DNA of 14,057 nucleotides, taken from contig MTLP01000018.1 in assembly GCA_002009975.1 (NCBI GenBank), positions 1 through 14,057 of the forward strand. Reading direction: 5' to 3'. The notes under the pieces were generated by a model. It did not search any database, was not told the DNA's origin, and saw only the letters and a list, made by a program, of their open reading frames with translations. Made by a program: the position numbers and the translations under genes. Source of the DNA: Thermococcus sp. JdFR-02. GTDB lineage: Archaea; Methanobacteriota_B; Thermococci; Thermococcales; Thermococcaceae. Of this stretch, positions 1-14,057 are shown piece by piece. Numbering within the stretch: the stretch's first letter is position 1; the number at the start of each line of letters is the position of its first letter.

Positions 1-25
1 AGGCCACCACTATTACCCTAGTCAT
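1..25 (-). CDS. 5' end of a gene running off the left edge, MTRVIVVA(S?)...; resembles the N-terminus of MinD/ParA-family ATPases
   Basis: Minus-strand ATG at 25-23 overlaps the pgk stop and is preceded by GAGGGG. Only 8 codons are visible; a hydrophobic strand ending in VA-S typically precedes the deviant Walker A (SGKGGxGKT) of MinD-like proteins, but that motif lies outside the window. Confidence 0.4.
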
Positions 26-1241
26 AGCCCCTCGCTTCCCTGAGCACTTCTATACCAGGGAGCTTTTCTCCAGCTAAGAAGAGAAGCATCGCCTTGCCGC
101 CGGTGCTTATGAAGGATATCTTTTCCCTCAGCCCCTGCTTCGCTGCTATAGCAGCGAGGTGTCCCCCGCCTATTACTGTAAAGCCCTTGCACCTCGCCAT
201 AGCTTTCAGTAGCTCCTGGCTTCCCAGGGCAAACTCCTTTATCTCAAAAACCCCTGCCGGACCGTTGGCAGCCACTATGGCAGCGTTTTCGATTATTTTC
301 GTATATCTTGCGATGGTATCGATGCCTATGTCCATAATCTTCTGATTGGGGAGATTGTCAACGCTCGTCTCTGCCCGTGAGCCGTCTCTTTTAAAAGCCA
401 GGTCTGTTGGAACCTGAATCTTCTCCCCGTACTTTTCCAGAAGCTTCTTTGCCTTCTCTACAAGCGTGTCAAATCCCCTCTCCTTCACCACCCTAAGATT
501 AACCTCGCCTATGTCCTTACCCTGCGCGAGGAGAAACACATTCGCGACCATTCCTGAGGTGAGTATAATATCAGCTATGCCACGACTCAAAAGCTTCTCC
601 ATAACCTTCAAGGAGTCTTTCGCCTTGGCTCCGCCAAAGCTGAAAACCTTGGGCTCAGCGTCACTCTTCAAAACCCTGCTCAGATTTTCCACCTCTTTTT
701 CGAGGAGCCTTCCAGCATAGCTGGGGAGAACCACTGGAAAGGCAACAACGCTTGGCTGCGAGCGGTGCGCAACTGCGAAGGCATCGTTGACGTACGCGTC
801 AACGTATGAGGAAAGCTTCCTCACTAAGTTTGTCTTCGCCTGAGCTTCCGGAGGCTTTGATTTAACCTCCTCTGCCACCTCCTCACTGCAGAAGCGAACG
901 TTCTCCAGCATGAGCACCTCGCCGCTCTTCAGGCGGAATATCTCCTCCCTCGCAGCTTTACCAAAGACGTCATCAATGTAGCGCACCTCCTTGCCCAGAA
1001 GCTTCGCGAGGCGCTGCGAGTGTGCCTCTAGTGTAGTGAAATCCTCAAGTCCCGGACGGCTCTGGTGGGCAAGCAGAACCAGCTTCGCATGTGAAAGCTC
1101 TTCTATGGTTGCGATGTGACTCCTTATCCTTGTGTCGTCGAGGATTGCACCGGTGCTCGGCTCAATTGGCGAGTTTATGTCGATGCGCATCAAGACGCGC
1201 TTGTCTTGTAGCTTTGCTCCATCCAGTGTGGGCAGTCCCAA
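18..1241 (-). CDS. pgk: Phosphoglycerate kinase (archaeal type), 407 aa
   Basis: PGK motifs RIDINSP, LAHQSRPG, LENVRF, YVNDAFAVAHRSQPS, FGGAK, ANGPAGVFE, IGGGH, ISTGGKA. TTG start with GGTGAT (1247-1252, minus strand) 5 nt upstream. Confidence 0.97.
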   Translation of the reverse strand: MGLPTLDGAKLQDKRVLMRIDINSPIEPSTGAILDDTRIRSHIATIEELSHAKLVLLAHQSRPGLEDFTTLEAHSQRLAKLLGKEVRYIDDVFGKAAREEIFRLKSGEVLMLENVRFCSEEVAEEVKSKPPEAQAKTNLVRKLSSYVDAYVNDAFAVAHRSQPSVVAFPVVLPSYAGRLLEKEVENLSRVLKSDAEPKVFSFGGAKAKDSLKVMEKLLSRGIADIILTSGMVANVFLLAQGKDIGEVNLRVVKERGFDTLVEKAKKLLEKYGEKIQVPTDLAFKRDGSRAETSVDNLPNQKIMDIGIDTIARYTKIIENAAIVAANGPAGVFEIKEFALGSQELLKAMARCKGFTVIGGGHLAAIAAKQGLREKISFISTGGKAMLLFLAGEKLPGIEVLREARGYD

Positions 1242-1273
1242 CTGAGATCACCAGTGAGATTTCTTCCAGCATC

Positions 1274-1298
1274 GCTATATATATTTTTGGCTTTTTAT
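1274..1298 (-). promoter_or_regulatory. Putative TATA box plus purine-rich BRE for pgk
   Basis: Minus strand reads ATAAAAAGCCAAAAATATATATAGC; the TATA-like element at 1276-1284 is about 35-43 nt upstream of the pgk start. Confidence 0.55.
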
Positions 1299-1345
1299 TG
1301 GAGTCGTTATCTTCGCTGCATGGGGTTGTAAGCGCACACCTATGA

Positions 1346-1366
1346 GGGAGATAAGTTATAAATAAC
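1346..1366 (+). promoter_or_regulatory. Putative BRE/TATA promoter of the pilus ATPase operon
   Basis: GGGAGATAAG-TTATAAATA (TATA at 1356-1364), about 37 nt before the ATG at 1401; SD-like GGCTGAT at 1391-1397. Confidence 0.6.
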
Positions 1367-1400
1367 CCCCGAGTTAGATAATCATTTTAAGGCTGATATC

Positions 1401-4400
1401 ATGCCTTATGACTTCTTTGACTTTGAGAAAAAGAAAAAAGGAAAAGGTAAAGATATTACTGGAATTCTTAGTGGAGCTGCTCAGGGAGAAAGCCCTAAAA
1501 ATAGGTTTGATTTCAAGGTTACACGAGGTGAGGTAGCACACACCCAGCGCTCGATTGGTGGTCTTCTGGACGCTGCGAGGGAGGAGGCTGGCAGCTACCT
1601 AGATAGCTTTGATAAAATTCGCCGAATCGGTGACGAGGTGATCGGAGAGATCCTAGAGGAGGCAAAAGACCACCGTATAGTAAGAAAACCTGGAGAAAAG
1701 TTACCAATATACGTTGTATTTCTGCCGGAATTAACCGAGAAAGACAAAAAGATTTTGAAAGACATTGAACGTCGTGCCGTGGCCGAGATAACCATTGACC
1801 CTGAGAGTTTTCTGGATAGAGAAAAGAGAAGAGAGGCTTTTCTCAAGGAAGTTGTGGCTCTAATTGACCTGAAGTACCCCAATATACCAAAGCACAAGCA
1901 GCACGCCTTCGCCGAGCTGATAGTTCAGAACATGATAGGCTATGGCTTACTGGAGCCGCTGCTCAACGACGATGCCCTTGAAGAGGTAATGGTAGTGGGC
2001 ACCAAAAAACACGTGTACGTGTACCACAGGAAGCACGGAATGTGCAAAACCAACATTGTCTTTGAGAGCGACGCGGAGATTGAGAAGATAATAAATAGGA
2101 TTGCGAGAACCATCGGCAGGAGGGTTGACCTCACCTCTCCGCTGCTCGACGCCCGCCTCCCTGACGGCTCGCGTGTAAATGCCACTATTCGTCCCGTTTC
2201 TCTTGACGGACCTTCCCTTACCATAAGAAAGTTCAGGAAAGACCCCCTCACGGTTGTAGACATAATAAAATTCGGCACCATGACCACTGAGCTAGCGGCC
2301 TTTCTCTGGCTGGTCGCAGAGGGCTATGGCGTAAAGCCTGCAAATTTCCTAGTGAGCGGCGGCACCGGCAGCGGCAAGACGACGACGCTCAACTGCCTGG
2401 GCAGCTTTATACCCCCAGCAGACAGGGTTATCTCAATAGAAGACACGGCGGAGCTTCAGCTACCTCTGGAGCACTGGATTCGCCTCGAAACGAGGCCACC
2501 GAACGTGGAGGGCAAAGGCGAGATAAACATGGAGATGCTGCTGAAGAACACACTGCGTATGCGTCCCGATCGCATCATCGTCGGTGAGGTGCGCGGCGCT
2601 GAGGCGAGAACTCTGCTGGCGGCGATGAACACAGGGCAGAACGGCTGCCTAGGCACGCTGCACGCGAACACAGCGCGAGAGACCATAACCAGGCTCACCT
2701 CTGCGCCAATGAATGTGCCAAAAATAATGATCCCCTCTCTTGACTTCATCTTCATGCAGAACCGCTTCTCCTACAAGGGCAAGACGGTGAGAAGGATAAC
2801 TGAGATCGCCGAGGTTGTTGGAATCGAAAACGGAGAGGTAAAAATAAACATAATCTACGAGTGGGACCCCCGCGATGACACCATAAAGCCCACTGGAGTG
2901 CCCTGCCTTTTAAAGAGCAAAATCGCAGAGCTTCGCGGCGTCTCACTTAAGGATGTGGACGCCGAGATAGAGCGCAGGAAAAAGGTTCTGGAGTACATGG
3001 TCGAGAACAACTTGCGCGGCATTAAGGAGGTGGGGAGGGTAATAAGGGAGTATTACACTAACCCCGAGCAGCTTCTCAAGGAGATTGAGGGGATAGAGTC
3101 TGATAAAGAGGTGGGAGAAGAGGAGGCAAAGAGGCGGAGGCGAAGCTATCTGCTTCTCTTGGGTTCAGAGAAGGGAGACGTAAAGGAGACAGTGCTTGAC
3201 CACAATGCACATCGTAAGATAGTGAAGTTGGAGAATGAGAAAAATCCCCACTACCTCGTGCCCTTACCCAAGCTCTCCTCTCGCGAAAAGCAGCTCCTGG
3301 AGGAGATAGAGAATCGCGCGGTAAAGGAGATAAACATAGACCCGGAAAGCATAACCGACAGAGAGGAGAGAAAGCGAATATTCATGCAGCGTGTTCTCGA
3401 GGTCATAGAGCGCTACTTCCCAGAAGTGCGCATGGCCAAGCGCAAGGACATAGCCAAGCTTGTGGTCAACAACATGGTGGGCTATAGCTTACTTGAGTTT
3501 CTGCTCAGCGACGACCAGCTTGAGGAGATAATGGTCATAGGCACGAAGAAGCCGGTCTATGTTAACCACCGCAATTACGGAAACTGCAAAACAAACATTG
3601 TCTTTGATACAGATGAGGAGATAATAAGAATAATCGAGAAGATCGCTGCATCTGTTGGAAGAAGGATAGACAAATCTTCGCCGCTGCTGGACGCCCGTCT
3701 CAGTGATGGCTCGCGTGTGAACGCAACCATACCCCCAATTTCCCTAGATGGGCCTACAATAACAATAAGAAAGTTCCGCTCGCAGCCTTTGACAGTGGTG
3801 AACCTCATAGAGTTCCGCACCTTGAACATAGAGGTGGCTGCCTACCTGTGGTTGGTGGTGGAAGGGCTGGGGATAAAGCCGGGCAATATTCTCGCCGCCG
3901 GAGGTGCAGGCTGTGGTAAGACAACAACGCTCAACGTGCTGTGTTCCTTCATACCCGAGACTGAGCGTGTAATAACCATTGAAGATACCGCAGAGCTTAC
4001 ACTTCCGATTGAGCATGTAGTTCGCCTCGAGACACGCCCGCCCAACGTTGAGGGTGAGGGCGAGGTTACAATGGACGACTTGGTGAAGAACACGCTACGA
4101 ATGCGTCCTGACCGCATTATTGTGGGCGAGGTTCGCGGACGCGAGGCGAGGACGCTCTTCACTGCCATGAACACTGGTCATGATGGCTGCATGGGCACTG
4201 TGCACGCGAACTCTGCCAAGGAGACCCTGATAAGGCTCACAAACCCGCCCATGGAGGTGCCCGAGATAATGCTCCCCGCCCTCGATTTAATACTCATGCA
4301 GAACAAGATTTACCACGAGGGCAAGACTCTGCGAAGAATAACCGAAGTGGCAGAGGTGGTGAGTGACGATCAGGGAAAGGTGAGCCTCAACAACGTTTAT

Positions 4401-4655
4401 GAGTGGGACCCCAAGAAGGACGACCTGGTAGCGACTGGGCAGCCAAGCGTGCTGAAGCAGAAAATCGCCCGCTTGAAAGGTATTTCCATGAAAGACCTGG
4501 AGGAAGAGCTCAAGCGAAGGGAGAAAGTCTTATCATGGATGGTTGAGAATCATATAACAGACATAAGAGATGTCTCGAAGACATTCAACAGGTACTACTC
4601 AGACCCCGAAGGCTTTCTGCAGGAGATTGAACTTCACAAGAGCATAGGGGAATAA
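1401..4655 (+). CDS. Type IV pilus/Tad assembly ATPase (VirB11/CpaF/TadA family) with two complete ATPase units in tandem, 1084 aa
   Basis: All family motifs occur twice: SPLLDARLxDGSRVNAT, TIRKF, Walker A (GGTGSGKT at 2358-2381; GGAGCGKT at 3900-3923), Asp box IEDTAEL, LRMRPDRIIVGEVRG (Walker B), His box (MNTGQNGCLGTLHAN; MNTGHDGCMGTVHAN), RRITE and YEWDP. Followed by two T2SS-F genes and pilins. Confidence 0.95.
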   Translation: MPYDFFDFEKKKKGKGKDITGILSGAAQGESPKNRFDFKVTRGEVAHTQRSIGGLLDAAREEAGSYLDSFDKIRRIGDEVIGEILEEAKDHRIVRKPGEKLPIYVVFLPELTEKDKKILKDIERRAVAEITIDPESFLDREKRREAFLKEVVALIDLKYPNIPKHKQHAFAELIVQNMIGYGLLEPLLNDDALEEVMVVGTKKHVYVYHRKHGMCKTNIVFESDAEIEKIINRIARTIGRRVDLTSPLLDARLPDGSRVNATIRPVSLDGPSLTIRKFRKDPLTVVDIIKFGTMTTELAAFLWLVAEGYGVKPANFLVSGGTGSGKTTTLNCLGSFIPPADRVISIEDTAELQLPLEHWIRLETRPPNVEGKGEINMEMLLKNTLRMRPDRIIVGEVRGAEARTLLAAMNTGQNGCLGTLHANTARETITRLTSAPMNVPKIMIPSLDFIFMQNRFSYKGKTVRRITEIAEVVGIENGEVKINIIYEWDPRDDTIKPTGVPCLLKSKIAELRGVSLKDVDAEIERRKKVLEYMVENNLRGIKEVGRVIREYYTNPEQLLKEIEGIESDKEVGEEEAKRRRRSYLLLLGSEKGDVKETVLDHNAHRKIVKLENEKNPHYLVPLPKLSSREKQLLEEIENRAVKEINIDPESITDREERKRIFMQRVLEVIERYFPEVRMAKRKDIAKLVVNNMVGYSLLEFLLSDDQLEEIMVIGTKKPVYVNHRNYGNCKTNIVFDTDEEIIRIIEKIAASVGRRIDKSSPLLDARLSDGSRVNATIPPISLDGPTITIRKFRSQPLTVVNLIEFRTLNIEVAAYLWLVVEGLGIKPGNILAAGGAGCGKTTTLNVLCSFIPETERVITIEDTAELTLPIEHVVRLETRPPNVEGEGEVTMDDLVKNTLRMRPDRIIVGEVRGREARTLFTAMNTGHDGCMGTVHANSAKETLIRLTNPPMEVPEIMLPALDLILMQNKIYHEGKTLRRITEVAEVVSDDQGKVSLNNVYEWDPKKDDLVATGQPSVLKQKIARLKGISMKDLEEELKRREKVLSWMVENHITDIRDVSKTFNRYYSDPEGFLQEIELHKSIGE
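1638..4632 (+). repeat. Intragenic tandem duplication: unit 1 ~1638-3090, unit 2 ~3180-4632, period 1542 nt (514 codons)
   Basis: Same 1542-nt offset at the unit start (1638/3180), Walker A (2358/3900), His box (2637/4179) and C-terminal YY (3051/4593). Manual count gives 69/97 identical residues in the LLEPLL...TIRKFR segment. DNA similarity is still visible, e.g. tgcaaaac[c/a]aacattgtctttga and gagtgggacccc. Confidence 0.95.
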
Positions 4656-4656
4656 G

Positions 4657-5793
4657 ATGGCAAATGCAATATTAAGGCTGATAGAAAAAATAGGTGAACT
4701 GACGGTAACCGGTGTAGAGAGCGTAGCCAGGAGAGCCCAGGAGGTATCTCTTGCTCTATCTGAGCAGGAAGAAGCTGCAAAAAAGCTCCGGGAGAAGAAA
4801 GAAAAAGAGAAGGAGGCGAGAAAGCGCGCCATTGAAGAGAAGCTCCTTAAGCTTCGCGAGGCTGTTGCCCTGGAGGAGGAGCTTCCTGGCGAGGAGCCTT
4901 TTGAGATTGTTCCGGAGCGTGAGGAGCTACGCGAACCCTTCGCCACTAGGCTGGTGAACATTGTTTCAGACCTCTTTTCGGGTTATACAAGAGCACCCTC
5001 GTCATTCTTCGCAAATATTCAGGAAGACCTGTACAAGGCGAATATCCTCATGCCAGCATCCAAATACATAGCCTTTGCGATAGGGGCGAGCGTTATTGTT
5101 GCTATTGCCTCCGCGGTGCTCTTCAGCATACTCTTCGCCGCCACTCTCGGCGCTTTGGGCTCGCTCATCGGCATAGTGCTGGGCCCCCTGCTTGGAGTCT
5201 TCGTCTTTTTCTACGCGAGAATCTACCCAAAATCTAAGGTCAAAGCGCGCTCAGATGCCTTTTCAAGGGAACTTCCCTTTGCGCTTAGACACATGGCAAC
5301 GCAACTCACCTCTGGCGCGGGTTTGCTGGAAACAATGCGTAGCGTCGCCCAGAGCGGCTACGGTGTGCTCAGCGAGGAGTTCAGGCGCGCAATACTTGAA
5401 ATAGAGCGCGGCGCAACCATAGAGGAAGCCTACGACAGGATGAACCTGCGCATAGACTCACCCGGACTAAAGAAGGCTTCCCGCCAGATAATTTCAACCC
5501 TGCGAACTGGCGGAAATCTTGCAAACACGCTAAAGATAATTGCCGAGGAAGTTGCAACCGAGATGAGAATGAAGCTTAAAGACTACATACAGATTTTGAA
5601 TACATTCTCGCTGATGTACATGTTTGCACTTGTTGTGGCACCTGTGCTTATAACAACCCTTGTAATAGCCATGGGCATAGCGATGAAGGGGCTTCCAATA
5701 CCTGCGAATGTGATGTGGATACTCTACCTCGCCTTTTTCGGTGTTGGCATCTACATGTCCTTCATGGTCAAACGCTTTGAACCAAAGGTGTGA
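4657..5793 (+). CDS. Type II secretion system F family (TadB/TadC-like) pilus platform membrane protein with a charged N-terminal extension, 378 aa
   Basis: ELPFALRHMATQLTSGAGL...YGVLSEEF...IERG...TGGNLANTL is the T2SS-F pattern; two hydrophobic segments before and two after it; starts 1 nt after the ATPase stop. Confidence 0.92.
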   Translation: MANAILRLIEKIGELTVTGVESVARRAQEVSLALSEQEEAAKKLREKKEKEKEARKRAIEEKLLKLREAVALEEELPGEEPFEIVPEREELREPFATRLVNIVSDLFSGYTRAPSSFFANIQEDLYKANILMPASKYIAFAIGASVIVAIASAVLFSILFAATLGALGSLIGIVLGPLLGVFVFFYARIYPKSKVKARSDAFSRELPFALRHMATQLTSGAGLLETMRSVAQSGYGVLSEEFRRAILEIERGATIEEAYDRMNLRIDSPGLKKASRQIISTLRTGGNLANTLKIIAEEVATEMRMKLKDYIQILNTFSLMYMFALVVAPVLITTLVIAMGIAMKGLPIPANVMWILYLAFFGVGIYMSFMVKRFEPKV

Positions 5794-5795
5794 AA

Positions 5796-6758
5796 ATGGC
5801 AGAGAAAGAAGAAGTTAAGGTTAACAGGCTGCGAAGTATCCTCGAAAAGCTTCGCATTCCCCAGTTTCTCGTTCCCAGGCGATTTCTCATCTCTATGGAG
5901 ATAATGCTTGCAAATGCAAACATCTCTTTCTCTGCCCGTGAGTGGATGGGTATATTCTTCGCCCTCGGAGTTGTGCTTTTTGTGCTAATCTCGCTTATTG
6001 TAAACCTCCCTGCCGGACTTGGGGCATTTATATTCACAGAAGCGCTCATGGTTGCAATACCCAAAATGCAGGCAGACAAGCGAAGGGCAGAGATAGAGGA
6101 GATGCTTCCTGACGCGTTGCACCACATGGCGGTTTCTATCCGCACGGGCTTGGTGCTGGAAGCGGTGATTCAGGAGATTGCAGAGGCAGAGTACGGCGCT
6201 CTCAGCGACGAGTTCGCTCAGATAACCCTTGAGATGCGCAGAGGCAGACCTCTTAAGGATGCGCTTATTGCTTTTTCCAAGCGAACCGGCTCAAAGCAGA
6301 TAGAGCGAGCGATGCGTCTGCTTCTGGAAGGAATAGAAAGCGGTGGCCCAATAAGCGATGTACTTGAGGAAGTGAGCGAGGACATTAGAGCAGTGCGCAT
6401 GATTCAGCGCGAACGCAAGTCTCTGACTTCGCAGCAGGTTTCTTTTCTTGCGATGGCTAGCTTAATGGCAGGGCCCTTCGTGATGGGCGTTGTGGGTGCG
6501 CTGCCAACGATTATGACGCAGGCGATGGCTGGTACAGGTGGAGCGGAGCAGTTTCCACTGGAGGAGATCAACTCCATTATGACAGCGCTCTCTTTCTACG
6601 TTGTGGCTCAAGCTGTAAGCGGGGGGATAATGATGGGAGTTGTTATGTACGGTGATTTTAAAAAAGGATTTAAATTCGCGCTACCGATGGGTGTAGTAGC
6701 ATATATCGTTTTCTGGGGAGTAAAGAGTCTTATGCCCGGGATGCTCGCCGCCTTCTAG
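5796..6758 (+). CDS. Second T2SS-F family (TadC-like) pilus platform membrane protein, ~320 aa
   Basis: LPDALHHMAVSIRTGLVL...YGALSDEF...MRRG...SGGPISDVL motif with flanking TM segments. ATG at 5796 is preferred (GGTG 5 nt upstream); the alternative GTG start at 5790 overlaps the upstream stop. Confidence 0.92.
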   Translation: MAEKEEVKVNRLRSILEKLRIPQFLVPRRFLISMEIMLANANISFSAREWMGIFFALGVVLFVLISLIVNLPAGLGAFIFTEALMVAIPKMQADKRRAEIEEMLPDALHHMAVSIRTGLVLEAVIQEIAEAEYGALSDEFAQITLEMRRGRPLKDALIAFSKRTGSKQIERAMRLLLEGIESGGPISDVLEEVSEDIRAVRMIQRERKSLTSQQVSFLAMASLMAGPFVMGVVGALPTIMTQAMAGTGGAEQFPLEEINSIMTALSFYVVAQAVSGGIMMGVVMYGDFKKGFKFALPMGVVAYIVFWGVKSLMPGMLAAF

Positions 6759-6813: not shown

Positions 6814-6865
6814 GGCGCAAAACTATAATTTTCTTTAAATCTTGTCCCACAGGAGGTGCCGAAAC

Positions 6866-7075
6866 ATGTTAAAAAAATTTTTAAAAGAGGAAAAGGCTCA
6901 GGGCGCGATTGAGTACATCCTGCTGGCGGGCGGCATTATAGTCGCTGCAGTGGTTATCTTCGTGATATACAAGAATATCGCACAGACTGCTGGAAATAAG
7001 ACTAAGAATACCATCGAGGAGACTGCTACGGTTGTCGGCAATGTGGTAAACAACGAGTTAGCAAACCTTAGCTAG
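6866..7075 (+). CDS. Short archaeal type IV pilin with class III signal peptide (probable major pilin), 69 aa
   Basis: MLKKFLKEEKA|QGAIEYILLAGGIIVAAVVIFVIY: charged leader, K-A at -2/-1, Q+1, E+5 and a hydrophobic helix (QxxxExxxL class III pattern). ATG at 6866 is 7 nt after AGGAGGTG, so the ORF-track start at 6842 is unlikely. Confidence 0.9.
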   Translation: MLKKFLKEEKAQGAIEYILLAGGIIVAAVVIFVIYKNIAQTAGNKTKNTIEETATVVGNVVNNELANLS

Positions 7076-7088: not shown

Positions 7089-7102
7089 TTTTTTTCTTTT
7101 TT
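7089..7102 (+). terminator. Oligo(T) archaeal intrinsic terminator after pilin 1
   Basis: TTTTTTTCTTTTTT begins 13 nt after the TAG; a further T-rich tract lies at 7111-7120. Confidence 0.65.
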
Positions 7103-7133
7103 GCATGTACTTTTTTATTTCGTAGGGAGGCAA

Positions 7134-7370
7134 ATGGCATCATTTAAAGATTTTATTATAAAGAACATTTACAGTTTTGCTTTGGAAACAAAAGCACAGG
7201 GAGCAGTAGAGTACATACTTATTGCTGGTGCCATTATTGTAGCTGCAATTATATTCATACCAATTTACAAAGAAATAGCAAAAACAACCGCTGAAAAAAC
7301 AAACGAAAGTGTGATTCTCACGGGAAAAGTTACGCAGAACAGTGTAAAGGAGGAGATAGCTAATCTTTGA
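7134..7370 (+). CDS. Second short type IV pilin with class III signal peptide, paralog of pilin 1, 78 aa
   Basis: ...ALETKA|QGAVEYILIAGAIIVAAIIFIPIY; ATG at 7134 follows GGGAGG. The mature part aligns without gaps to pilin 1 (30/57 identical by manual count). Confidence 0.88.
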   Translation: MASFKDFIIKNIYSFALETKAQGAVEYILIAGAIIVAAIIFIPIYKEIAKTTAEKTNESVILTGKVTQNSVKEEIANL

Positions 7371-7396
7371 ATTATGAATAGCTTGTTGACAACTTC

Positions 7397-8530
7397 TTAA
7401 TAAGGGTTCCAGTCTTTAACTTCCTTAAATTTTGGAAATTCGCCGTATTCGTATTTGCTAAATAATTTTCCCCACTCAGTTATCATAAACTGCTTTATTT
7501 TTCTTTTTCCGATTAAATTATACCAAATCCAATCATGATACAATTCTGATAAAAAGATAAAAAATTTAAATATGGGAGAGTAAAACAGAAGATAATGTAT
7601 CCATTTGATTTTTGCCGTATTCTTTCTTAATATCTGATCCCATTTAATTACCAGGCTTTTTTTTGTTATGAAACCAAAGTTTAGTTTTTCGAGATCTTTT
7701 TTATCAATACCAATAATTTCGATCTGGTCAATATCTCCAACTCCTAATCCTCTATCATGGGCTATTTTAATGTAATCCACTTCCATAGGATCAAATCCCA
7801 TTATCTTTGCGGCTACTGCATCTATAGCTACTTGATCTCCACCTGCTAGTATTATATTACCAATAAAAGGCTCCATAGTTCTTGGACCTGCACCGTTTCC
7901 GCAAACACAACCATCCATAACTGCAAAAATTCCTTTATGGATCTCTTTCTGAATAGCTAATAAATCAACGAGGACTTCATGTATCTTCAGGTGCGCGTGA
8001 TGCCTATATTTCGGTATTAAACCGCCAAAAGCATTTTTCATCGCTCCGGTCGTGGTCGTGTGCCCATGTGTCTTAATTGTTGGTAAATGAATTATATTGC
8101 TTCCGATTAAAATTTTTGGTATTAATATTTTTTCGAATATATCTTTCATAGCAAGCATCTCTGTTTTGGGTTCATAATTTACCCACTCCACATCTGTCAA
8201 TGGTAGGAACCTAGTTTTATATTGCTTGAGAATAGGAAGCCATTTGTTATAATAAGCACCTTTCCAGGGATGTGTTACCACAGTTTGATTTTCCACAGCC
8301 AAAACATCATTGTATCCATCTTCTTTTAGAGTTTTCAGTATACCTTCAAGCTGCCATGGCGGTGTGGAGCATGCTGGAAAAAATAAAGTCCAAGATAAAT
8401 TGAGTTTTAAAATTGTTTTCACATCTTTAGATAAAAATTTTCCATATTCTATCATACGCATCAATTTGGAGTAGTCCTCCAAGATCCTTCCAGGTGATGT
8501 TTTTAACACCGCAATTCTTGATTTTTTCAT
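7397..8530 (-). CDS. DUF362 domain-containing protein (putative metal/Fe-S enzyme), ~377 aa, no C-terminal ferredoxin domain
   Basis: Motifs LKLNLSW...ACSTPP, LPTIKTHGHTTTTGAMKNAFGGL, MDGCVCGNGAGP, DQVAIDAVAAKIMGFDP and AHDRGLG. Likely start is MKKSRI at 8530 (10 nt after the upstream stop, GGGG upstream) rather than 8584. Confidence 0.85.
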   Translation of the reverse strand: MKKSRIAVLKTSPGRILEDYSKLMRMIEYGKFLSKDVKTILKLNLSWTLFFPACSTPPWQLEGILKTLKEDGYNDVLAVENQTVVTHPWKGAYYNKWLPILKQYKTRFLPLTDVEWVNYEPKTEMLAMKDIFEKILIPKILIGSNIIHLPTIKTHGHTTTTGAMKNAFGGLIPKYRHHAHLKIHEVLVDLLAIQKEIHKGIFAVMDGCVCGNGAGPRTMEPFIGNIILAGGDQVAIDAVAAKIMGFDPMEVDYIKIAHDRGLGVGDIDQIEIIGIDKKDLEKLNFGFITKKSLVIKWDQILRKNTAKIKWIHYLLFYSPIFKFFIFLSELYHDWIWYNLIGKRKIKQFMITEWGKLFSKYEYGEFPKFKEVKDWNPY

Positions 8531-8540
8531 GTATCTGCCC

Positions 8541-10160
8541 CTATTTTTGTTTAATTTCAATGTATTTTCCCATCTGTTTAACATTTTTTGGCAATTTTGA
8601 AGAAAATATTCTTAGGCTTTCGATCAATCTATCCTCCTCCTCAGGATCAACTGCATAGAATGAAACAGTATCTCCTCCGCATACCACGTTATTTGAGATT
8701 TTCCATTCTCCAACCTTAATCCATTGGGGAGGAAGCCCACCATACGACTCAAACCAATGGTCATAAACAATTGCGATCTTTACGTCTTCGTTCTTCGCTA
8801 ACTTGTATATGTACTCAGTATTATAAGAACTCTCTCTTTTTGCTTTAGCTACTTCTAAACTACCTAAACCCTTTAAATCCAAGCATTTAATATCTGCTAT
8901 AAAGTTGATTGTACCGATATCATTTGCAGCAACAGTTTCTCCCTGATAGAATTCTTTAAGGAATAAAGCCATTTGATACTGCTGTTCATAGATATTTTTT
9001 GTAGCAAGAGGTGTAATTATTGAAGATACATATCCCCTTATTGCAAATGGTGAGATAAAGAGAAAGATAAGTAGTATCATTGCTATGTATTTCGGAATTA
9101 AATATTTGTCAAACAATAGCTTTTCTGGTAGATATTCCCGTACCTCTAGAGCGATGGTAAATATACCAAAGGCAATTAAGTAGGCTTCATATCTATAGAA
9201 CCATCCAGTCTTCGCAAATAACATATGCAAAAAGGCAGTCGTAATAAAAATAAAAAGGAGGATCGTTTGCTCTCTCCAGAGAGTATTTGACCTGATAAAT
9301 TTCAGAATAAAAAGAATTGAAGTGGTAAATATGAGAATTAAAATGTGGGATTCTGATATTCGAGTAATAAATAGATAAATAAAATTCCAAATGCCTACAG
9401 AAGAAATTACAGGTATATTATTTTTAATAAGAATTGAATTTGGGAAGAAATACCATCCATTAGAGATCGAGATTAAACCGTATATTACAATTGGGACAAG
9501 ACTTAGTGAGATCAACAGGAAGGATTCAAGCAACCGCTTCCTCATAATGAATAAGGTGCTCACAGCCATCACCAAAAACAACCCCTCATACCGAGTCATG
9601 GGTAGTAAAGGTGCTAATATTAGCAAAAATGAAAATTCTTTATTTAAATCAGAACGCTCTTTTGATAAAATTTTAGCAGAAAGATAAGCAAAGAAAATTG
9701 TGATGAGTGTGTGTAACATATGTTCCATACCGGTAAATATAATCGCAGGAAAAGGTGTGAAGAATATTATCGAGAGCAGAACAATAAAATTGTAGATGGA
9801 TGGAAATTTGTATTGTTTAAGTAAAATATAAATCAGATACGTTGTGAGTGTTGCAAATACAACATTTAATACAAGCGGAACAGCTTCGTTTACCCCAAAT
9901 AAGAAAAATATTACGAATAGCAATAATGGATAAAGTAACGATGAGGATGAGGATGAAAACTCATATTTAGTCACACCCCAAACCCCATGTTGAGCAAAAT
10001 TTTTTGCCATAGCCATGTGAATATAAGGGTCATCAAGAGCGTAGACAAGATGTCCATGAGTATAAATAAGAGAAGCATTTAGCAATACCGCTATTATTGC
10101 CAAAAGGAATCCCACTGATATAATTAGCGGCCAATGTCTTAACAATGTCACCCTTATCAT
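8541..10160 (-). CDS. Polytopic GT-C-fold glycosyltransferase, AftB (arabinofuranosyltransferase)-like, 539 aa
   Basis: Acidic DD motif after TM1 (LDDPYIHMAMAKNF...G), then SSSSLLY, GMEHML, TRYEG, FPNS and RY motifs, about 10 or more hydrophobic segments, and a C-terminal soluble domain with DIG...LDLKGLG. This layout is typical of polyprenyl-phosphosugar-dependent transferases. SD GGTGA overlaps the upstream TGA. Confidence 0.65.
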   Translation of the reverse strand: MIRVTLLRHWPLIISVGFLLAIIAVLLNASLIYTHGHLVYALDDPYIHMAMAKNFAQHGVWGVTKYEFSSSSSSLLYPLLLFVIFFLFGVNEAVPLVLNVVFATLTTYLIYILLKQYKFPSIYNFIVLLSIIFFTPFPAIIFTGMEHMLHTLITIFFAYLSAKILSKERSDLNKEFSFLLILAPLLPMTRYEGLFLVMAVSTLFIMRKRLLESFLLISLSLVPIVIYGLISISNGWYFFPNSILIKNNIPVISSVGIWNFIYLFITRISESHILILIFTTSILFILKFIRSNTLWREQTILLFIFITTAFLHMLFAKTGWFYRYEAYLIAFGIFTIALEVREYLPEKLLFDKYLIPKYIAMILLIFLFISPFAIRGYVSSIITPLATKNIYEQQYQMALFLKEFYQGETVAANDIGTINFIADIKCLDLKGLGSLEVAKAKRESSYNTEYIYKLAKNEDVKIAIVYDHWFESYGGLPPQWIKVGEWKISNNVVCGGDTVSFYAVDPEEEDRLIESLRIFSSKLPKNVKQMGKYIEIKQK

Positions 10161-10164
10161 TCCC

Positions 10165-11121
10165 TCACCCTTTTATTTTAAAACCATATTTAAAACCATA
10201 AATAGATAAAATAGACAGCGTAAAAAGTCCAATTAAAACACCAAACCAAAGGGTGCAAAATCTGATTATCAGAGTTGAAGCGATTGCAACGGTCTTGGTA
10301 ATACCACTGAAAATCAAAATTCCCACCATGCTACCTTCAGTGACGCCTAACCCTCCAGGAATCATGCTCACCGCTCCTACTATAGTGGAAAAACTGAAGG
10401 CGAAAACAGGTAAAAGTAGGGAAATCTCTAGTCCAAATCCCTCAATAACCAAAAACAAAGCTAAACATTCGAAAAACCACGATAAAACGCTTATTCCTAC
10501 TACAATAGTTAAATTCTTTATTTTGAAGAGTGTATGGGTACTTAAATACAAGTTTTGTACTGTTTCTGTAAATCTTGATATAAAGGGAAAATTAAAATTT
10601 ATTAACTTTATAAACATTTTTTCTGACTGGATTATCATAATTATTATAGAAATAACAAAAATTGTAGTTATAAGTACTTCTTTACCGTATTTGAAAACAG
10701 AATATCCAATTGAAGCCAATATTATTAATCCAATTAAATCTGTAAAACGTTCTGCAAATATAATCGGAAGTGTCTTACTCATTTCAACACCATTCAATTC
10801 TTTTAATAGATAAGATTTAAATGCCTCCCCCAACTTTACCGGAGTAACAGACATAGATAATCCACTTAAGAATATTGCCATACTATCTCTCCTGCTTATG
10901 TTGATTTTTAAGCATCTTAAATAATAATCCCACTTGAAAAATCTTAATACATAGTTCAAAAAGGTTAGTACTAGTATCAAAGGGATATATGTCCATTTAA
11001 AGCCCCTAAAAACGATAATCAGATCATTAATGTCTGCATAAATTGAAAGGGTCGTATATATCGCAACAGCACTTAGTAATGAAATTATTATTTTGTTCCT
11101 TATTTCCATCTTTCCCACCAT
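10165..11121 (-). CDS. Lysylphosphatidylglycerol-synthase TM domain (UPF0104/flippase-like) membrane protein, 318 aa
   Basis: LRFFKW, TPVKLGEAFKSYLLK, IFAERFTD, IPGGLGVTEG and LIIRFCTLWF are characteristic of this family; about 8 TM segments. Alternative start at 11109 (GGTGG upstream). Confidence 0.88.
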   Translation of the reverse strand: MVGKMEIRNKIIISLLSAVAIYTTLSIYADINDLIIVFRGFKWTYIPLILVLTFLNYVLRFFKWDYYLRCLKINISRRDSMAIFLSGLSMSVTPVKLGEAFKSYLLKELNGVEMSKTLPIIFAERFTDLIGLIILASIGYSVFKYGKEVLITTIFVISIIIMIIQSEKMFIKLINFNFPFISRFTETVQNLYLSTHTLFKIKNLTIVVGISVLSWFFECLALFLVIEGFGLEISLLLPVFAFSFSTIVGAVSMIPGGLGVTEGSMVGILIFSGITKTVAIASTLIIRFCTLWFGVLIGLFTLSILSIYGFKYGFKIKG

Positions 11122-11151
11122 TTATAATATAGCCTTTATTAAAACATTCAA

Positions 11152-11241
11152 CTACCATGTTCGTGTATATCCAAATTTTTCATTTAGCACTTTCAATATA
11201 AAAATACAGATTATCCCAAGAGTTAAAGGAAACCGCTCCAA
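11152..11241 (-). CDS. Possible 29-aa small hydrophobic peptide or gene remnant (MERFPLTLGIICIFILKVLNEKFGYTRTW)
   Basis: TTG at 11241, TAG at 11152, GGAGGT 10 nt upstream (11252-11257), same strand as both neighbours, within a 199-nt gap. Confidence 0.2.
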   Translation of the reverse strand: MERFPLTLGIICIFILKVLNEKFGYTRTW

Positions 11242-11320
11242 CTTTTTTTAAACCTCCCAGTGTTAAGGATAAAAATAGAACATTTCTACCATAGGTGGAA
11301 CAGATTTATCATCATAGTTT

Positions 11321-12217
11321 TCAAGTTTTTGTTAAACTGTACAAATCCATGCTTAAAACTCCATAATGAGCACCATAGAGTATCATAACAACTAAAACAA
11401 CCCACAAAATTATACTAATCAACATTCCTTTATCCTTAAACAGCATTTCCGGTTCTCCCCCAATGTTCTTTACATAAACCAAAAACATATATCTGAAAAG
11501 ACCGTATAATACCAAAGGAATTGTTATCATCATCCAAATATTATCTGCAAGAAAGGTGTATAAGAAATATGACATGATTAATGCAGCAGTAGTGATATTA
11601 ATCATCTGATCAAGCATTTTAGACGAATATTCTCCAAGAATTTTACGGTGATTTCTAGCTTCTTCTCCAAGTAATGTCAATTCATGCCTCCTTTTACAAA
11701 GTGCTAAAAATAAAGCCAGTAAAAAAGCACAAATTATTAGCCAAGGAGAAATAAATACATTTATAGCTAGGCATCCGGCAACTGCTCTTATGACAAAGCC
11801 AATAGAAATAACCAGCAAATCAACTATTATGATATTTTTCAGAAACATCGAATATGAGAGGATTAACAGAATATATGCTATTGAAACTGCAAAAAATAAC
11901 ATATTTATTAAATAGGCGCCCAATACCCCTACAAAAATCAATATTACCGCAAATAACAGAGCATGAGATACTTTTAACTCTCCTGAAGCAATTGGTCTGT
12001 TCCTCTTTTTGGGATGCTTCCTATCCTTTTCTATGTCTAAAATGTCATTAATAATGTACTCACTCCCGGAAAGTATGCAAAATATAATAAATGCAGAAAT
12101 TACATCAAACCATTTCTGAAAGTTTAAGAGATTTAAGGAGAATACAATACCAACAAATAAAACTAAGTTCTTATACCATTGCTGTGGTCTCATCGAAATT
12201 ATGAGTTCTTTTAGCAT
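11321..12217 (-). CDS. UbiA-family decaprenyl/polyprenyl-phosphate phosphoribosyltransferase (DPPR synthase-like), 298 aa
   Basis: RPQQWYKNLVLF, YIINDILDIEKDRKHPKKRNRPIASG, YSMFLK, KRRHEL, YGLFRY and GEPE motifs match the Rv3806c-like phosphoribosyltransferase branch of UbiA; about 9 TM segments; SD AGGAG at 12227-12231. Confidence 0.9.
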   Translation of the reverse strand: MLKELIISMRPQQWYKNLVLFVGIVFSLNLLNFQKWFDVISAFIIFCILSGSEYIINDILDIEKDRKHPKKRNRPIASGELKVSHALLFAVILIFVGVLGAYLINMLFFAVSIAYILLILSYSMFLKNIIIVDLLVISIGFVIRAVAGCLAINVFISPWLIICAFLLALFLALCKRRHELTLLGEEARNHRKILGEYSSKMLDQMINITTAALIMSYFLYTFLADNIWMMITIPLVLYGLFRYMFLVYVKNIGGEPEMLFKDKGMLISIILWVVLVVMILYGAHYGVLSMDLYSLTKT

Positions 12218-12247
12218 TTTATCTTACTCCTTTGTGAGTTATGGCAT

Positions 12248-12273
12248 TTCATATAATATTGCAGATATATGAA
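12248..12273. promoter_or_regulatory. Inverted repeat TTCATATA-N10-TATATGAA in the divergent intergenic region; possible operator or overlapping TATA elements
   Basis: Perfect 8-bp arms at 12248-12255 and 12266-12273, about 30-55 nt upstream of the phosphoribosyltransferase start. Confidence 0.35.
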
Positions 12274-12385
12274 TTTTCCTTTCAGATAATGAACAAGAGT
12301 GCGGAAAATTTTAAATTGGGTATTGTTGATTTCACTAAGTGTGATAAAACAACTTCAGCGCTTATTGATTTGGGTTAAATTGAAC

Positions 12386-13873
12386 ATGGAGGAAACATCT
12401 AAGTCAGGAAAATTTATTCTTATTTCGACTCTATCCGTTATGATACTGGCAATTATAACTAATCTAGATGTTAAGGCAGCTTACTACATACAAATGGTCC
12501 TGTATCCATATTTTGGCGGATCTAGTGGCCTAAAAATTTCGTTTTTCTTTATTTTCATTCTAATTCCTTTATTTATAAGATCCATAACCTATAAACTAAA
12601 GATAGAAATCCGAATCGGAAATCCTATAAATTTAATGTTACTATATCTCTTCCCTAACCTTGTGCTTTATGGTGTTGGATTTTTTTTGTTTAAACATGAA
12701 TTAGAATCACGTGCATTGCCGAATTCTGCAGAATTTTTAATTCCCATAAATTCATTAAGTTATAGTGCTCCAAATTCCTGGCTTCATCATCATCTATTAA
12801 AGCCAACCCTTGCCTATGCCCTTGACATGCTTTATCTCAACGGAATTTTCAATGTGGATTTTCTAGAGTGGACACACGTTATCCCCGGAGAGGTATATAA
12901 AGCTACTGCGGTATTGCTTATAATGTCCTTCTTACTGTGGGTTATTCTTGGTTATATGACACTCAGCGAATATGGCATTACCCATTACTTTGTCCTCTCT
13001 GTGCCCGCTTTTGGGATATTTGTAACATCTATTGATGGAGGAATTTTCACATCCTTTTCATATGCCAGTTTGGGAGCCTACTTATCATTCTTGGTGTACC
13101 TAATATCAAAAAAAGAAAATATAAAAAATTGGCTTTCGATACCGCTAATTTACTTATTTTCAACACTTCCTTTTCTTTTAGTTATTTACACAATTGTCCT
13201 ACTTAAAATTCCAGCATATGATAATAGTAACAATCCACAGGCACTGCTATTATTTCCAACGATTCTGTCTATCTTTCTGCTTTTTAAATCATTCCAGACA
13301 GCAAATAAAAAATTACGCATAAGAATCGCCGCATGCTTAATTGTTCTGTTAGTTACTGCATCTTCCTTAGGTTTTTTAATTATGTATAAAGGATTTAGAA
13401 ATTATGGCATAGTATCGAGTAGAGTCTGGAATGCTACCATATATTCTCCTGCTCTTGAAACTTCAACCCAAGAAGAAATTGAGAATATATTTTCATCTGA
13501 GGGGATTAAAATCAAGATAATTTTTAAAGAAGGCCCTTTCATATTTGGTACTTTCTCTTCAAATAAACCATTTAAATTTGGGGAAATAATTAATTTGGAA
13601 TTCGTGAAAGCAGCTAGAAATTCCAATGGAGGGATTTATGGCGTTTCCCCAGGTAGAATTGGAGATAATAAAACAGTGGTGATTTTTTTAAATAGGAAGG
13701 TTACCCCTCAAGAGATAAATAAACTCTCCAATCATCCTTGCGTAAAAGACTTTAAAATCCTAGAAAATGGTGTTAGTATTGAGGTGCTTATGAGACATGA
13801 TCTGGCTGTCGAAAGTGTTGGGATGATATTTAAGGATCCGCATCTTTTAGGTGCAGTAGTAAATTATTATTAA
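12386..13873 (+). CDS. Hypothetical polytopic membrane protein (~9-10 TM) with a C-terminal soluble domain, ~495 aa
   Basis: Long ORF with alternating hydrophobic segments, polar loop motifs WLHHHLLKP and SIDGGIFT, and a hydrophilic C-terminal ~160 aa. ATG at 12386 (MEETSK) is preferred over GTG at 12299. Confidence 0.8.
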   Translation: MEETSKSGKFILISTLSVMILAIITNLDVKAAYYIQMVLYPYFGGSSGLKISFFFIFILIPLFIRSITYKLKIEIRIGNPINLMLLYLFPNLVLYGVGFFLFKHELESRALPNSAEFLIPINSLSYSAPNSWLHHHLLKPTLAYALDMLYLNGIFNVDFLEWTHVIPGEVYKATAVLLIMSFLLWVILGYMTLSEYGITHYFVLSVPAFGIFVTSIDGGIFTSFSYASLGAYLSFLVYLISKKENIKNWLSIPLIYLFSTLPFLLVIYTIVLLKIPAYDNSNNPQALLLFPTILSIFLLFKSFQTANKKLRIRIAACLIVLLVTASSLGFLIMYKGFRNYGIVSSRVWNATIYSPALETSTQEEIENIFSSEGIKIKIIFKEGPFIFGTFSSNKPFKFGEIINLEFVKAARNSNGGIYGVSPGRIGDNKTVVIFLNRKVTPQEINKLSNHPCVKDFKILENGVSIEVLMRHDLAVESVGMIFKDPHLLGAVVNYY

Positions 13874-14057
13874 TCATTACAATATGGTATAGTATACAAA
13901 ACTCTGGGCTTCGCCCTCTCTTTGGTATATATGTCGAAAACATTTCCTTGAGCATCAATAGCAATGAATCTCGCTATTGTCAGGTTGACTTCACCGAGAA
14001 TAAAGTGGTGGGTGCTTTTTGACTTTGCTGTCCACCAATTGGAACCAAAGCCATATA
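13870..14057 (-). CDS. 3' end of an unknown gene entering from the right edge (...YGFGSNWWTAKSKSTHHFILGEVNLTIARFIAIDAQGNVFDIYTKERAKPRVLYTIPYCND*)
   Basis: 61 open codons on the minus strand from the edge to TAA at 13872-13870; the stop interlocks (TTAA) with the stop of the convergent gene. Confidence 0.55.
   Translation of the reverse strand, partial: YGFGSNWWTAKSKSTHHFILGEVNLTIARFIAIDAQGNVFDIYTKERAKPRVLYTIPYCND

Follow-up and report, generated by a model that had tools for sequence, protein, structure and literature searches.

A stretch of 14,057 nucleotides (nt) from the archaeon Thermococcus sp. JdFR-02 (hereafter the window, meaning the whole stretch analysed) carries four co-oriented genes for a UbiA-family phosphoribosyltransferase, a flippase-like membrane protein, a glycosyltransferase of the GT-C fold and a DUF362 protein. 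These four genes probably represent the core of a horizontally acquired pathway of extracytoplasmic glycosylation in which a pentofuranose is carried on a lipid, the chemistry being read from the protein families. The original prediction had proposed a route from phosphoribosyl pyrophosphate (PRPP) through lipid-phosphate-ribose-5-phosphate to a lipid-phosphate-pentose that is flipped and transferred outside the cell. This is still the best reading, as both the UbiA assignment and the GT-C fold held when checked.

The window lies at C2:219658-233714 on the minus strand of the host genome (G000), which comprises 1.99 Mb in 15 contigs with 51% guanine plus cytosine (GC) and a completeness of 99.95%. 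All four genes lie on the minus strand of the window in the order UbiA, flippase-like, GT-C, DUF362, and they converge on two Flp-like pilin genes. The gap between the UbiA and flippase-like genes is 199 nt, that between the flippase-like and GT-C genes is 4 nt, and that between the GT-C and DUF362 genes is 10 nt; the stop codons of the DUF362 gene and the second pilin gene are 26 nt apart. The arrangement described earlier, four co-oriented genes converging on two pilin genes, was confirmed in every detail of gene calls and spacing. The four genes (protein lengths in amino acids, aa) are as follows.

11321-12217, minus strand: UbiA-family protein, most likely a polyprenyl-phosphate 5-phosphoribosyltransferase, 298 aa, recognized by NF008977
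10165-11121, minus strand: MprF-type flippase-like membrane protein (LPG_synthase_TM), 318 aa, without the synthase domain
8541-10160, minus strand: GT-C-fold glycosyltransferase, 539 aa, with a C-terminal alpha/beta domain at residues 405-539
7397-8530, minus strand: DUF362 protein of LarA fold, 377 aa, with a hydrophobic C-terminal helical extension; the open reading frame (ORF) call is 7397-8584, whereas homologs favour the second ATG, at 8530, as the start (alignment A5)

Probable donor synthase, GT-C transferase and their co-occurrence

The first protein contains only a UbiA domain in its 298 aa (PF01040, E 4.5e-31). Against NF008977, the model for decaprenyl-phosphate phosphoribosyltransferase, it scores 271.6 bits with a curated equivalog cutoff of 234, and against NF008978, a second model of the same function, it falls just under the cutoff (201.6 bits vs 207). 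The score with NF006088 ('UbiA family prenyltransferase') is 174.6 bits with a cutoff of 351, and the named rival prenyltransferase models, including those for heme O synthase, digeranylgeranylglyceryl phosphate (DGGGP) synthase, the 4-hydroxybenzoate enzyme and MqnP, reach at most 54 bits. The closest solved relative is the decaprenylphosphoryl-5-phosphoribose (DPPR) synthase of Mycobacterium tuberculosis (8j8j, E 1.2e-34, residues 5-276), as compared with E 9.5e-7 for the DGGGP synthase 6m31 in the same PDB search. The protein therefore groups, as had been anticipated, with DPPR synthase and not with DGGGP synthase or quinone prenyltransferases. A function as DGGGP, quinone or heme O prenyltransferase was ruled out by scores far under the respective cutoffs and by the PDB ranking. 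Additionally, the sequence NDILDIEKD at residue 57 has the spacing of N247, D248, D251 and D255 (NDxxDxxxD) in ORF15 of Citrobacter. The main text of Kelly et al. (PMC11127046) reports that these four residues are needed in ORF15 and that the Asp-rich NDxxDxxxD motif of cytoplasmic loop II is essential in both ORF15 and Rv3806c. The UbiA protein is most likely a polyprenyl-phosphate 5-phosphoribosyltransferase that uses PRPP and would catalyse the first committed step. Above-cutoff UbiA proteins of this DPPR-synthase type also occur in 128 of 151 genomes of the bacterial class around genome G001 (Ignavibacteria/Bacteroidota-like), in which lipid-linked pentose donors may be near-universal.

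The 539-aa protein has no sequence match in Pfam, NCBIfam or the PDB (the last searched up to E 10), and 1809 homologs at E <= 1e-3 were found among 8000 candidates scored. The homologs listed are 46-70% identical and carry the names of Bacteroidota, Zixibacteria, Methanobacterium, Methanomethylovorans and Hodarchaeota. Its AlphaFold model (predicted local distance difference test, pLDDT, 91.9; predicted template modelling score, pTM, 0.92) contains a polytopic membrane domain structurally similar to solved GT-C enzymes, and all 16 Foldseek matches at E <= 0.001 are GT-C enzymes, in agreement with the predicted fold. The 'DD motif' noted earlier is likewise real. D43 and D44 (ALDDPYIHM) are invariant in an alignment of 41 family members, together with E146, H147, R190, E192, K246, H312 and R323, and they stand just after the first transmembrane (TM) segment of the model, following the helix 10-33 and starting the helix 44-58. 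The positive N-terminus would place both aspartates on the outward side. A special nearness to the Aft and Emb transferases, which had also been suggested, did not survive comparison, as AglB, STT3, PMT and ArnT reach equal or better scores. Judged from its model, the 539-aa protein is a GT-C enzyme that founds a large family without Pfam coverage.

The distribution of this transferase was compared with that of the UbiA protein. A total of 563 GT-C loci were confirmed, 80 from named genomes were kept, and neighbour content was read in all 80. Direct neighbours were taken from 79 of them (L082 is without an intact GT-C ORF), and the family scan covered 143 of the 150 adjoining genes, leaving out the seven longest (>780 aa). 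Tests on 49 genomes represent 50 of the 80 loci (L004-L053). In the scripted comparisons, ORFs came from a simple longest-ORF caller that missed some small or overlapping genes, and many genomes are metagenome-assembled genomes (MAGs). UbiA exceeds the cutoff in 43 of the 49 GT-C-carrying genomes and in none of 14 controls; of the six genomes that miss it, four still show strong matches (157-218 bits) that are truncated or sub-cutoff. Within the phylum of the host, the same two of 38 genomes carry both an above-cutoff UbiA and the GT-C, and both are missing from three further congeners of 93-96% completeness. Among 151 Methanobacteria genomes, UbiA was found in 27 and the GT-C in 13; all 13 GT-C genomes are UbiA-positive, as compared with 14 of the 138 genomes without the GT-C. 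The GT-C is nested in the UbiA distribution, the pattern is repeated in unrelated clades, and the grouping is more than chance.

There are several points that weigh against such a coupling. Physical linkage to the GT-C in the 80 loci is limited to 11 cases for UbiA, eight for DUF362 and six for the flippase-like gene, and the whole island described below recurs in L012 only (a Candidatus Pyrohabitans MAG, Hydrothermarchaeota). Because physical linkage is patchy, the case for coupling rests mainly on co-occurrence in genomes, which is confounded by shared ancestry; the counts ignore kinship, so that independent events are overstated. Moreover, UbiA is near-universal in the bacterial class mentioned above, and nesting there says little. 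In large contigs the GT-C can be ~1 Mb away from UbiA (G130, G166), in line with a single donor operon that serves scattered transferases. Mycobacteria, too, have transferases at scattered places that draw on the same donor.

It is very improbable that the four genes are chance neighbours brought together by island assembly, with the UbiA product unrelated to the donor of the GT-C (for example a hexose made by a GT2 enzyme). The island does hold a complete second module with a GT2, a flippase-like gene and a YfhO/PMT-like GT-C that could supply a hexose donor, and the GT-C is unlinked to UbiA in 69 of the 80 loci. Against this stand the 4- and 10-nt gaps, which indicate one operon, the UbiA score above a curated equivalog cutoff, the nesting in both samples, and the recurrence of the same gene set in Methanobacterium, Methanoperedens, Pirellulales and Aminicenantes loci. 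As a separate observation, stop-broken or split GT-C copies stand beside or instead of intact ones in several Methanobacteria (G143, G193, G228, G103, G222), which suggests frequent decay and turnover of these transferases.

DUF362 and the proposed completion of the donor

Pfam assigns the fourth protein to DUF362 alone (E 5.8e-26). The original prediction placed it in the operon, which was correct, and gave it no role; it is found here to be a constant partner of UbiA with the fold of LarA, the nickel-pincer racemase. The UbiA-linked subfamily (A5, E <= 1e-100) occurs in 28 of the 151 Methanobacteria genomes, namely all 27 UbiA-positive ones and G132, and in each of the 27 the two genes share a contig at a distance of 1.3-5.2 kb. 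In the class around G001, all 56 DUF362 genomes have a UbiA match (55 above the cutoff, one truncated). The slot directly downstream of UbiA on the same strand was inspected at 20 of the 43 above-cutoff UbiA places; these were hand-picked, mostly away from the GT-C contig or from contig ends, and are not a random sample (one, L092, has an adjoining GT-C paralog). DUF362 occupies the slot in five of the 20 loci, followed by an EamA transporter in four of these five. A DprE1-like FAD_binding_4+ALO oxidase occupies it in another five, followed by an adh_short protein in two; in one of these five, L086, the oxidase stands at +2 behind a short opposite-strand ORF. The remaining identified occupants are an NAD-dependent epimerase, a flippase-like gene and a PMT_2-like GT-C, one each. 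Furthermore, the two alternatives never coincide in the 49 genomes, of which 25 have only DUF362, 13 only the DprE1-like protein, none both and 11 neither. The host genome is without a DprE1 ortholog (best match 25% identity over 189 aa, E 3.3e-7), and the congener genome G009 has no DprE1-like protein at E <= 1e-30. It is concluded that DUF362 belongs to donor synthesis and not to acceptor choice.

The likeness to LarA concerns the fold and, less clearly, the active site. DUF362 and the LarA domain DUF2088 share the Pfam clan CL0471, as stated in a passage of PMC11770544. A PDB sequence search with DUF362 returned only chance-level matches; the protein has no match to Lar_N (DUF2088), and a Lar_N search of the host genome gave 0 matches. 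To fix LarA numbering (D72, R75, H108, H174, K184, H200), a natural LarA homolog was used as a bridge to the 5huq chain. An hhalign comparison of A5 with six LarA homologs places the DUF362 sequence 'HLPTIKTH...TGAMK' on LarA 'FIEPH174...SGGRK184', that is, H155 on H174 and K165 on K184. In 14 UbiA-adjacent orthologs, H148, P150, T151, K153, H155, T160-A163, K165, N166, R176, H177, H180 and H184 are invariant. A cysteine cluster is absent from the protein; its C-terminal helical extension is hydrophobic, and some homologs have a terminal TM helix in addition. Inteins occur in seven close DUF362 homologs (P0122, P0123, P0129, P0130, P0132, P0133 and P0140; 44-59% identical), and in five of these a LAGLIDADG homing endonuclease domain is present. 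The insertion point, DUF362 profile position 110, falls within the invariant HLPTxKTH motif and is equivalent to residues ~141-153 in the window protein. As functional sites are the usual location of inteins, the insertion likely marks the active site.

The most economical reading of DUF362 is that of an epimerase, which is a tentative assignment, and the participation of nickel-pincer chemistry is rather doubtful. In its fullest form the proposal is that the UbiA-linked DUF362, with a LarA-like active site and a nickel-pincer or related cofactor, would by itself epimerise polyprenyl-phosphate-ribofuranose to the arabinofuranose or xylofuranose form and replace DprE1/DprE2; this, too, is more doubtful than the epimerase role as such. 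The host genome encodes LarB (269.5 bits vs 175), LarC and LarE (320.5 vs 150) and no LarA, so that its DUF362 proteins are candidate users of the nickel-pincer cofactor. LarB and LarC lie at C2:118135-120086 and LarE at C2:52082-52852; there are four DUF362 proteins in the genome, with paralogs of the window protein at C1:100675, C2:257424 and C2:36126.

Several results count against these assignments. The hhalign match is weak (E 0.072, probability 0.78%) and gives a hint of register only; it shows no counterpart of the second catalytic histidine of LarA, His108. The His and Lys positions vary in a broader alignment of 35 DUF362 sequences. The 13 DprE1-like genomes include 12 Acidobacteriota, which makes the complementarity nearly a single contrast with few independent events. 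LarB does not track DUF362, being present in 18 of 25 genomes with it and 17 of 24 without it. These LarB absences are unreliable, as LarC or LarA homologs are present in all but two (G014 and G048) of the seven LarB-negative genomes: six LarA homologs in G003, LarA homologs in G018 and G034, and LarC in G001 and G002.

If DUF362 is not an epimerase, it might be the 5'-phosphatase, a redox enzyme forming a keto- or deoxy-pentose, or a non-catalytic partner of UbiA, and the transferred sugar would be ribofuranose or another derivative. This is unlikely, although it agrees with the lack of any DUF362 member known to have a tested function and with the residues invariant in the broad alignment (P52, P58, D206, D237, G263), which are not the catalytic set of LarA. 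It would also agree with the missing association with LarB and with bacterial UbiA-DUF362-EamA loci that have no obvious phosphatase within two genes of UbiA. A phosphatase role is countered by archaeal cassettes that carry DUF362 together with a PHP phosphoesterase, in which the phosphatase slot is already filled. Also against a role other than epimerase stand the His/Lys/His set in the weakly aligned LarA register, invariant in the 14 UbiA-linked orthologs, and the distribution complementary to the DprE1-like oxidase.

The 5'-phosphatase step had been described as not visible in the window, which is right, as only the 3' end of the candidate gene falls within the window, in its last 186 bases. 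This gene (L003:10935-11846) encodes a Metallophos protein of 303 aa (E 2.5e-17) with one TM segment at residues 18-36, and it overlaps the neighbouring 524-aa gene tail to tail. It is probably the 5'-phosphatase of the island. Two findings tell against this assignment: Metallophos occurs in only one further locus of 100, the same-genus island L012, and the enzyme found in the corresponding place of related cassettes, a PHP phosphoesterase, is missing from the island. In L067 (Methanobacterium, complete chromosome) and L008 (Methanoperedens) the gene order is UbiA, large membrane protein (PMT_2-like in L067), PHP-domain phosphoesterase of 210-214 aa and flippase-like gene. The GT-C follows directly after the flippase gene in L067 only, and DUF362 lies downstream in both. 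PHP homologs are present in six of the 100 loci, all of them archaeal. The sole PHP homolog of the host genome (48% identity) was rejected as a member of the system, being a core-genome gene at normal GC. The Citrobacter phosphatase is of the HAD type and the mycobacterial one belongs to a different family, according to the main text of PMC11127046. For this step, non-orthologous phosphatases are thus the norm already. Radical SAM genes were also seen near such cassettes, at L067:13011-14866 together with a xylose-isomerase-like TIM barrel gene and at L103:10186-11532 (Bacteroidetes) two genes downstream of UbiA behind an EamA gene; their products may further modify the sugar.

The flippase-like protein matches LPG_synthase_TM (PF03706, E 1.2e-46, 160 bits vs 33.4) over residues 18-298 of its 318 aa and TIGR00374 with 105.7 bits (vs 43.2), as compared with only 31 bits (vs 600) for bifunctional MprF. 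Its gene adjoins the GT-C or UbiA in six of the 80 loci and in L102. A paralog of 25% identity stands beside the GT2 of the island, so that each donor synthase of the island (UbiA, GT2) is adjoined by its own LPG_synthase_TM gene. From this gene position, it is proposed that the flippase-like protein moves the polyprenyl-phosphate-pentose. MprF-type proteins are known as phospholipid flippases, which speaks against the proposal.

From the families, folds, gene order, co-occurrence and island setting observed, we infer the following chemical steps, sugar, topology and acceptor. At the cytoplasmic face, the UbiA-type enzyme would move ribose-5-phosphate from PRPP onto a polyprenyl (probably dolichyl) phosphate. 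A metal-dependent phosphoesterase would then take off the 5'-phosphate, in this island probably the membrane-anchored Metallophos protein and in related archaeal cassettes the PHP enzyme. The LarA-fold DUF362 protein, presumably membrane-bound through its hydrophobic C-terminal helices, would tailor the lipid-linked ribofuranose, most likely by inverting one secondary alcohol through hydride abstraction and return. Inversion at C2' would yield arabinofuranose and at C3' xylofuranose, a task performed elsewhere by DprE1/DprE2 or by a short-chain dehydrogenase/reductase (SDR) epimerase. The MprF-type protein would carry the donor to the outer face, where the 539-aa GT-C, acting through D43/D44 after its first TM segment, would pass the pentose to a surface acceptor.

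The low-GC island, the pilins and the acceptor

Positions 1-6758 of the window are ordinary core DNA of ~50% GC, which holds phosphoglycerate kinase and a Tad-like archaeal pilus operon. GC drops to 31-34% right after the stop codon of pilin 2 and stays low to the end of the window. The remaining features of the window are as follows.

1401-6758, plus strand: Tad-like archaeal type IV pilus operon, GC ~50%
1401-4655, plus strand: fused double T2SSE ATPase of 1084 aa with a PilB3_C end and two P-loop regions (Pfam: T2SSE E 2.1e-98 in two stretches, PilB3_C 2.7e-12)
4657-5793 and 5790-6758, plus strand: two T2SSF membrane proteins (Pfam: T2SSF E 1.9e-20 and 6.4e-18)
6842-7075, plus strand: Flp-like class III pilin 1, likely start ATG 6866 (MLKKFLKEEKAQG/AIEY...)
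7101-7370, plus strand: Flp-like class III pilin 2, likely start ATG 7134
7371-14057 and on to about C2:214000, no strand: low-GC island, 31-34% per gene vs 51% for the genome
12299-13873, plus strand: divergent polytopic membrane protein, 524-aa ORF, island member; gene callers place the start at M30 or M48
13870-14057, minus strand: 3' end of the gene for the 303-aa Metallophos (calcineurin-like) phosphoesterase, a candidate 5'-phosphatase; the rest lies beyond the window

The low-GC stretch measures ~13 kb (~33% vs 51%; about C2:214000-227000) and runs 5.7 kb past the 3' end of the window, after which AlaX and GcvH genes of normal GC follow. Beyond the window (L003) it contains, in order, the Metallophos gene, a 483-aa GT-C-like membrane protein, a 539-aa PTPS_related/YfhO/PMT_2 GT-C, a GT2 and the second LPG_synthase_TM gene. 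The 483-aa protein is nearest to Atlas clusters bearing PMT_2, STT3 and Dpy19 (0.92), which is a lead only. The 524-aa protein within the window has no Pfam or NCBIfam family and only uninformative Atlas scores of at most 0.86; it has ~9 hydrophobic segments and three homologs including itself, with a 93% identical copy in L012. The island was horizontally acquired. The prediction of a compact archaeal version of the pathway stood insofar as the pathway is present in an archaeon; it is not specifically archaeal, being a cross-domain cassette that is commoner in bacteria and is found in two of 38 genomes of the phylum. Low-GC islands are general in the host genome, where sixty-seven 2-kb windows fall below 38% GC in roughly two dozen places.

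In the second module (L003:6287-9430), the flippase-like gene overlaps the GT2 gene and lies next to the 539-aa PTPS_related/YfhO/PMT_2 GT-C. GtrA/GtrB/Gtr* and CsbB/GtcA/YfhO are three-component hexose systems, and this module looks like such a system with an MprF-type flippase candidate. The island consists of two modules of the same logic, each with a lipid-sugar synthase and an MprF-type flippase-like gene, plus several GT-C-type transferases.

The pilins themselves are part of the pilus operon and not of the island. Pilin 2 matches Class_IIIsignal (E 2.8e-6, 27.5 bits vs a cutoff of 23.7) and is 53% identical to pilin 1, which stays below the cutoffs of both Class_IIIsignal (E 4.4e-4, 20.6 bits vs 23.7) and Flp1_like (6.2e-3). 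Four further genomes of the genus have conserved versions of the pilus operon, with 78-82% nucleotide identity, and of both pilins, with 71-75% amino-acid identity for pilin 1. The DNA between the pilins and AlaX varies, spanning 3-4 kb in G059 and G058 and ~12 kb in the host genome. This slot holds in G059 and G058 a PMT_2-like GT-C (557 or 571 aa) converging on the pilins and a 439-aa membrane protein, in G057 two PMT_2-like paralogs with a homolog of the 483-aa island protein, and in G056 the same island as in the host genome. In each of the five genomes examined in the genus (G000, G056-G059), the pilins are directly followed by genes of GT-C type or of the operon of one; in G000 and G056 the nearest of them is DUF362, with which the GT-C operon ends. 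In this genus, then, a hypervariable glycosylation slot next to the pilins does exist. A comparison with the congener island (L012, same slot in G056) gives 69% identity for the GT-C and 74% for the flippase-like protein vs 85-95% for flanking island genes, which fits faster evolution or replacement of surface-specific parts; the pilins of the congeners sharing the island are 68-82% identical.

The pilins are a candidate acceptor because the island sits in this slot directly behind the Flp-like pilin genes, although they are unlikely to be the actual one. The earlier proposal of a pilin target stood within the genus, where the slot behind the pilins is always occupied by GT-C-type genes, and did not extend to the wider sample. 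A hidden Markov model of the pilins, run against the small ORFs in 100 loci, detected pilins in no loci but L012 and L078, so that 78 of the 80 GT-C loci are without a nearby pilin ORF and one of the two exceptions is from the same genus. This scarcity weighs against the pilins. It is close to an even chance that the acceptor is another one, namely a sugar of the S-layer or an N-glycan, a membrane lipid or a cell-wall polymer, and that the adjacency to pilins reflects a recombination hot spot for surface-glycan genes. Members of the GT-C family from many bacterial phyla and from archaea, which have no pilin type in common, are still 40-56% identical, and because of this wide distribution other acceptors are argued for in most hosts. 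The ~1 Mb between GT-C and donor operon in G130 and G166, and the presence in the island of at least two further GT-C-like genes plus the GT2 module, point the same way. Set against these are the occupation of the slot in five of five genus genomes and an unrelated Methanobacterium MAG locus (L078), the only one outside the genus, in which three tandem pilin ORFs converge on a GT-C homolog from 2.5 kb. Pilins of Pseudomonas, moreover, are arabinosylated by a related pathway (PMC11127046, main text). In two bacterial loci (L084:941-4170 and L091:4425-7607, one of them Zixibacteria), UbiA lies directly upstream of genes for PilB-type T2SSE and PilC-type T2SSF proteins, which also favours a pilus connection and is a second, independent tie of UbiA to type IV filament genes.

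Significance and comparison with known systems

Pentofuranose donors linked to lipids are most familiar from mycobacteria, in which they serve the cell wall and DprE1 is a target of drugs. They have been described, since 2024, from the O-antigen side chains of Gram-negative bacteria (PMC11127046, main text). An above-cutoff UbiA is present in 27 of 151 Methanobacteria and, within one bacterial class, in 128 of 151 genomes, which suggests that the same chemistry is widespread. The pathway seems to reach archaea by gene transfer and to run with different parts, including a GT-C family of more than 1800 members. If the proposed DUF362 step is true, a large domain of unknown function would gain a role, nickel-pincer-type enzymes a wider range of reactions and arabinofuranose donors a DprE1-independent route. 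If DUF362 is in addition a nickel-pincer epimerase, this would be the first function of a DUF362 protein and the first LarA-type reaction on a sugar and on a lipid-linked substrate, and a cofactor user would be found for genomes in which larB, larC and larE are present without larA. The variable slot next to the pilins offers a testable case of glycan diversification on archaeal pili.

No paper was found that connects a polyprenyl-phosphoribose pathway with DUF362 or with MprF-type proteins, or that places the pathway in archaea, the candidate systems of Figs S11 and S12 in PMC11127046 lying outside the scope of this search. The main text of that paper contains no mention of DUF362, MprF or 'flippase-like', and 'archaea' appears only in a cited title.

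The nearest described parallel is the system of Citrobacter youngae O1/O2, for which the main text of Kelly et al. 2024 (PMC11127046) gives biochemical evidence of a PPPRS, a flippase and a GT-C (ORF15-ORF14-ORF12) with the ORF13 epimerase. The island resembles it in having a PRPP-using UbiA-type transferase whose product would be processed by an accessory enzyme and, once flipped, serve a GT-C outside the cytoplasm, and in its modular and mobile make-up, some loci having several GT-Cs. The parts differ. Citrobacter has a HAD-type PRP domain, whereas the scanned island genes include no HAD family and offer Metallophos, or PHP in related loci, as candidates; its flippase is a MATE protein, whereas no MATE was found in the scanned island genes and an MprF-type (LPG_synthase_TM) candidate takes that place. 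The Citrobacter GT-C belongs to GT136 (ORF12) and that of the island to a family without Pfam coverage; tailoring is by an SDR (ORF13) in the former and would be by a LarA-fold DUF362 protein in the latter, and the host of the island is an archaeon.

The mycobacterial pathway to decaprenylphosphoryl-arabinose comprises the UbiA protein Rv3806c, the phosphatase Rv3807c, DprE1/DprE2, Rv3789 and the Emb/Aft GT-Cs (in part from PMC11127046, main text). In contrast, no DprE1, DprE2, PAP2 phosphatase or GtrA/SMR-type transporter was found in the scanned island genes, and the island GT-C is not nearer to Emb/Aft than to AglB, STT3, PMT or ArnT. The second module shares the logic of the three-component hexose systems named above and differs in its flippase candidate, which is of MprF type and not GtrA or GtcA. 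In Pseudomonas, the gene for the TfpW transferase adjoins the pilin gene, which would match the layout of the island. For the group IV pilins of Pseudomonas aeruginosa, a DPPR-synthase ortholog has been proposed to supply lipid-linked D-arabinofuranose for O-glycosylation, and the TfpW system uses DprE1/E2 homologs (PMC11127046, main text). TfpW is not among the PDB matches of the 539-aa protein, and the pilins beside the island differ in being short archaeal Flp-like class III proteins. Known reactions of the LarA superfamily are limited to alpha-hydroxy acids according to a passage of PMC13524815, whereas the substrate proposed for DUF362 is a lipid-linked sugar. Compared with the known pentofuranose systems, the Thermococcus cassette has a first enzyme of their family and, as read from sequence and fold, different parts for the rest: the phosphatase, the flippase candidate, the unclassified GT-C family and the LarA-fold DUF362 protein.

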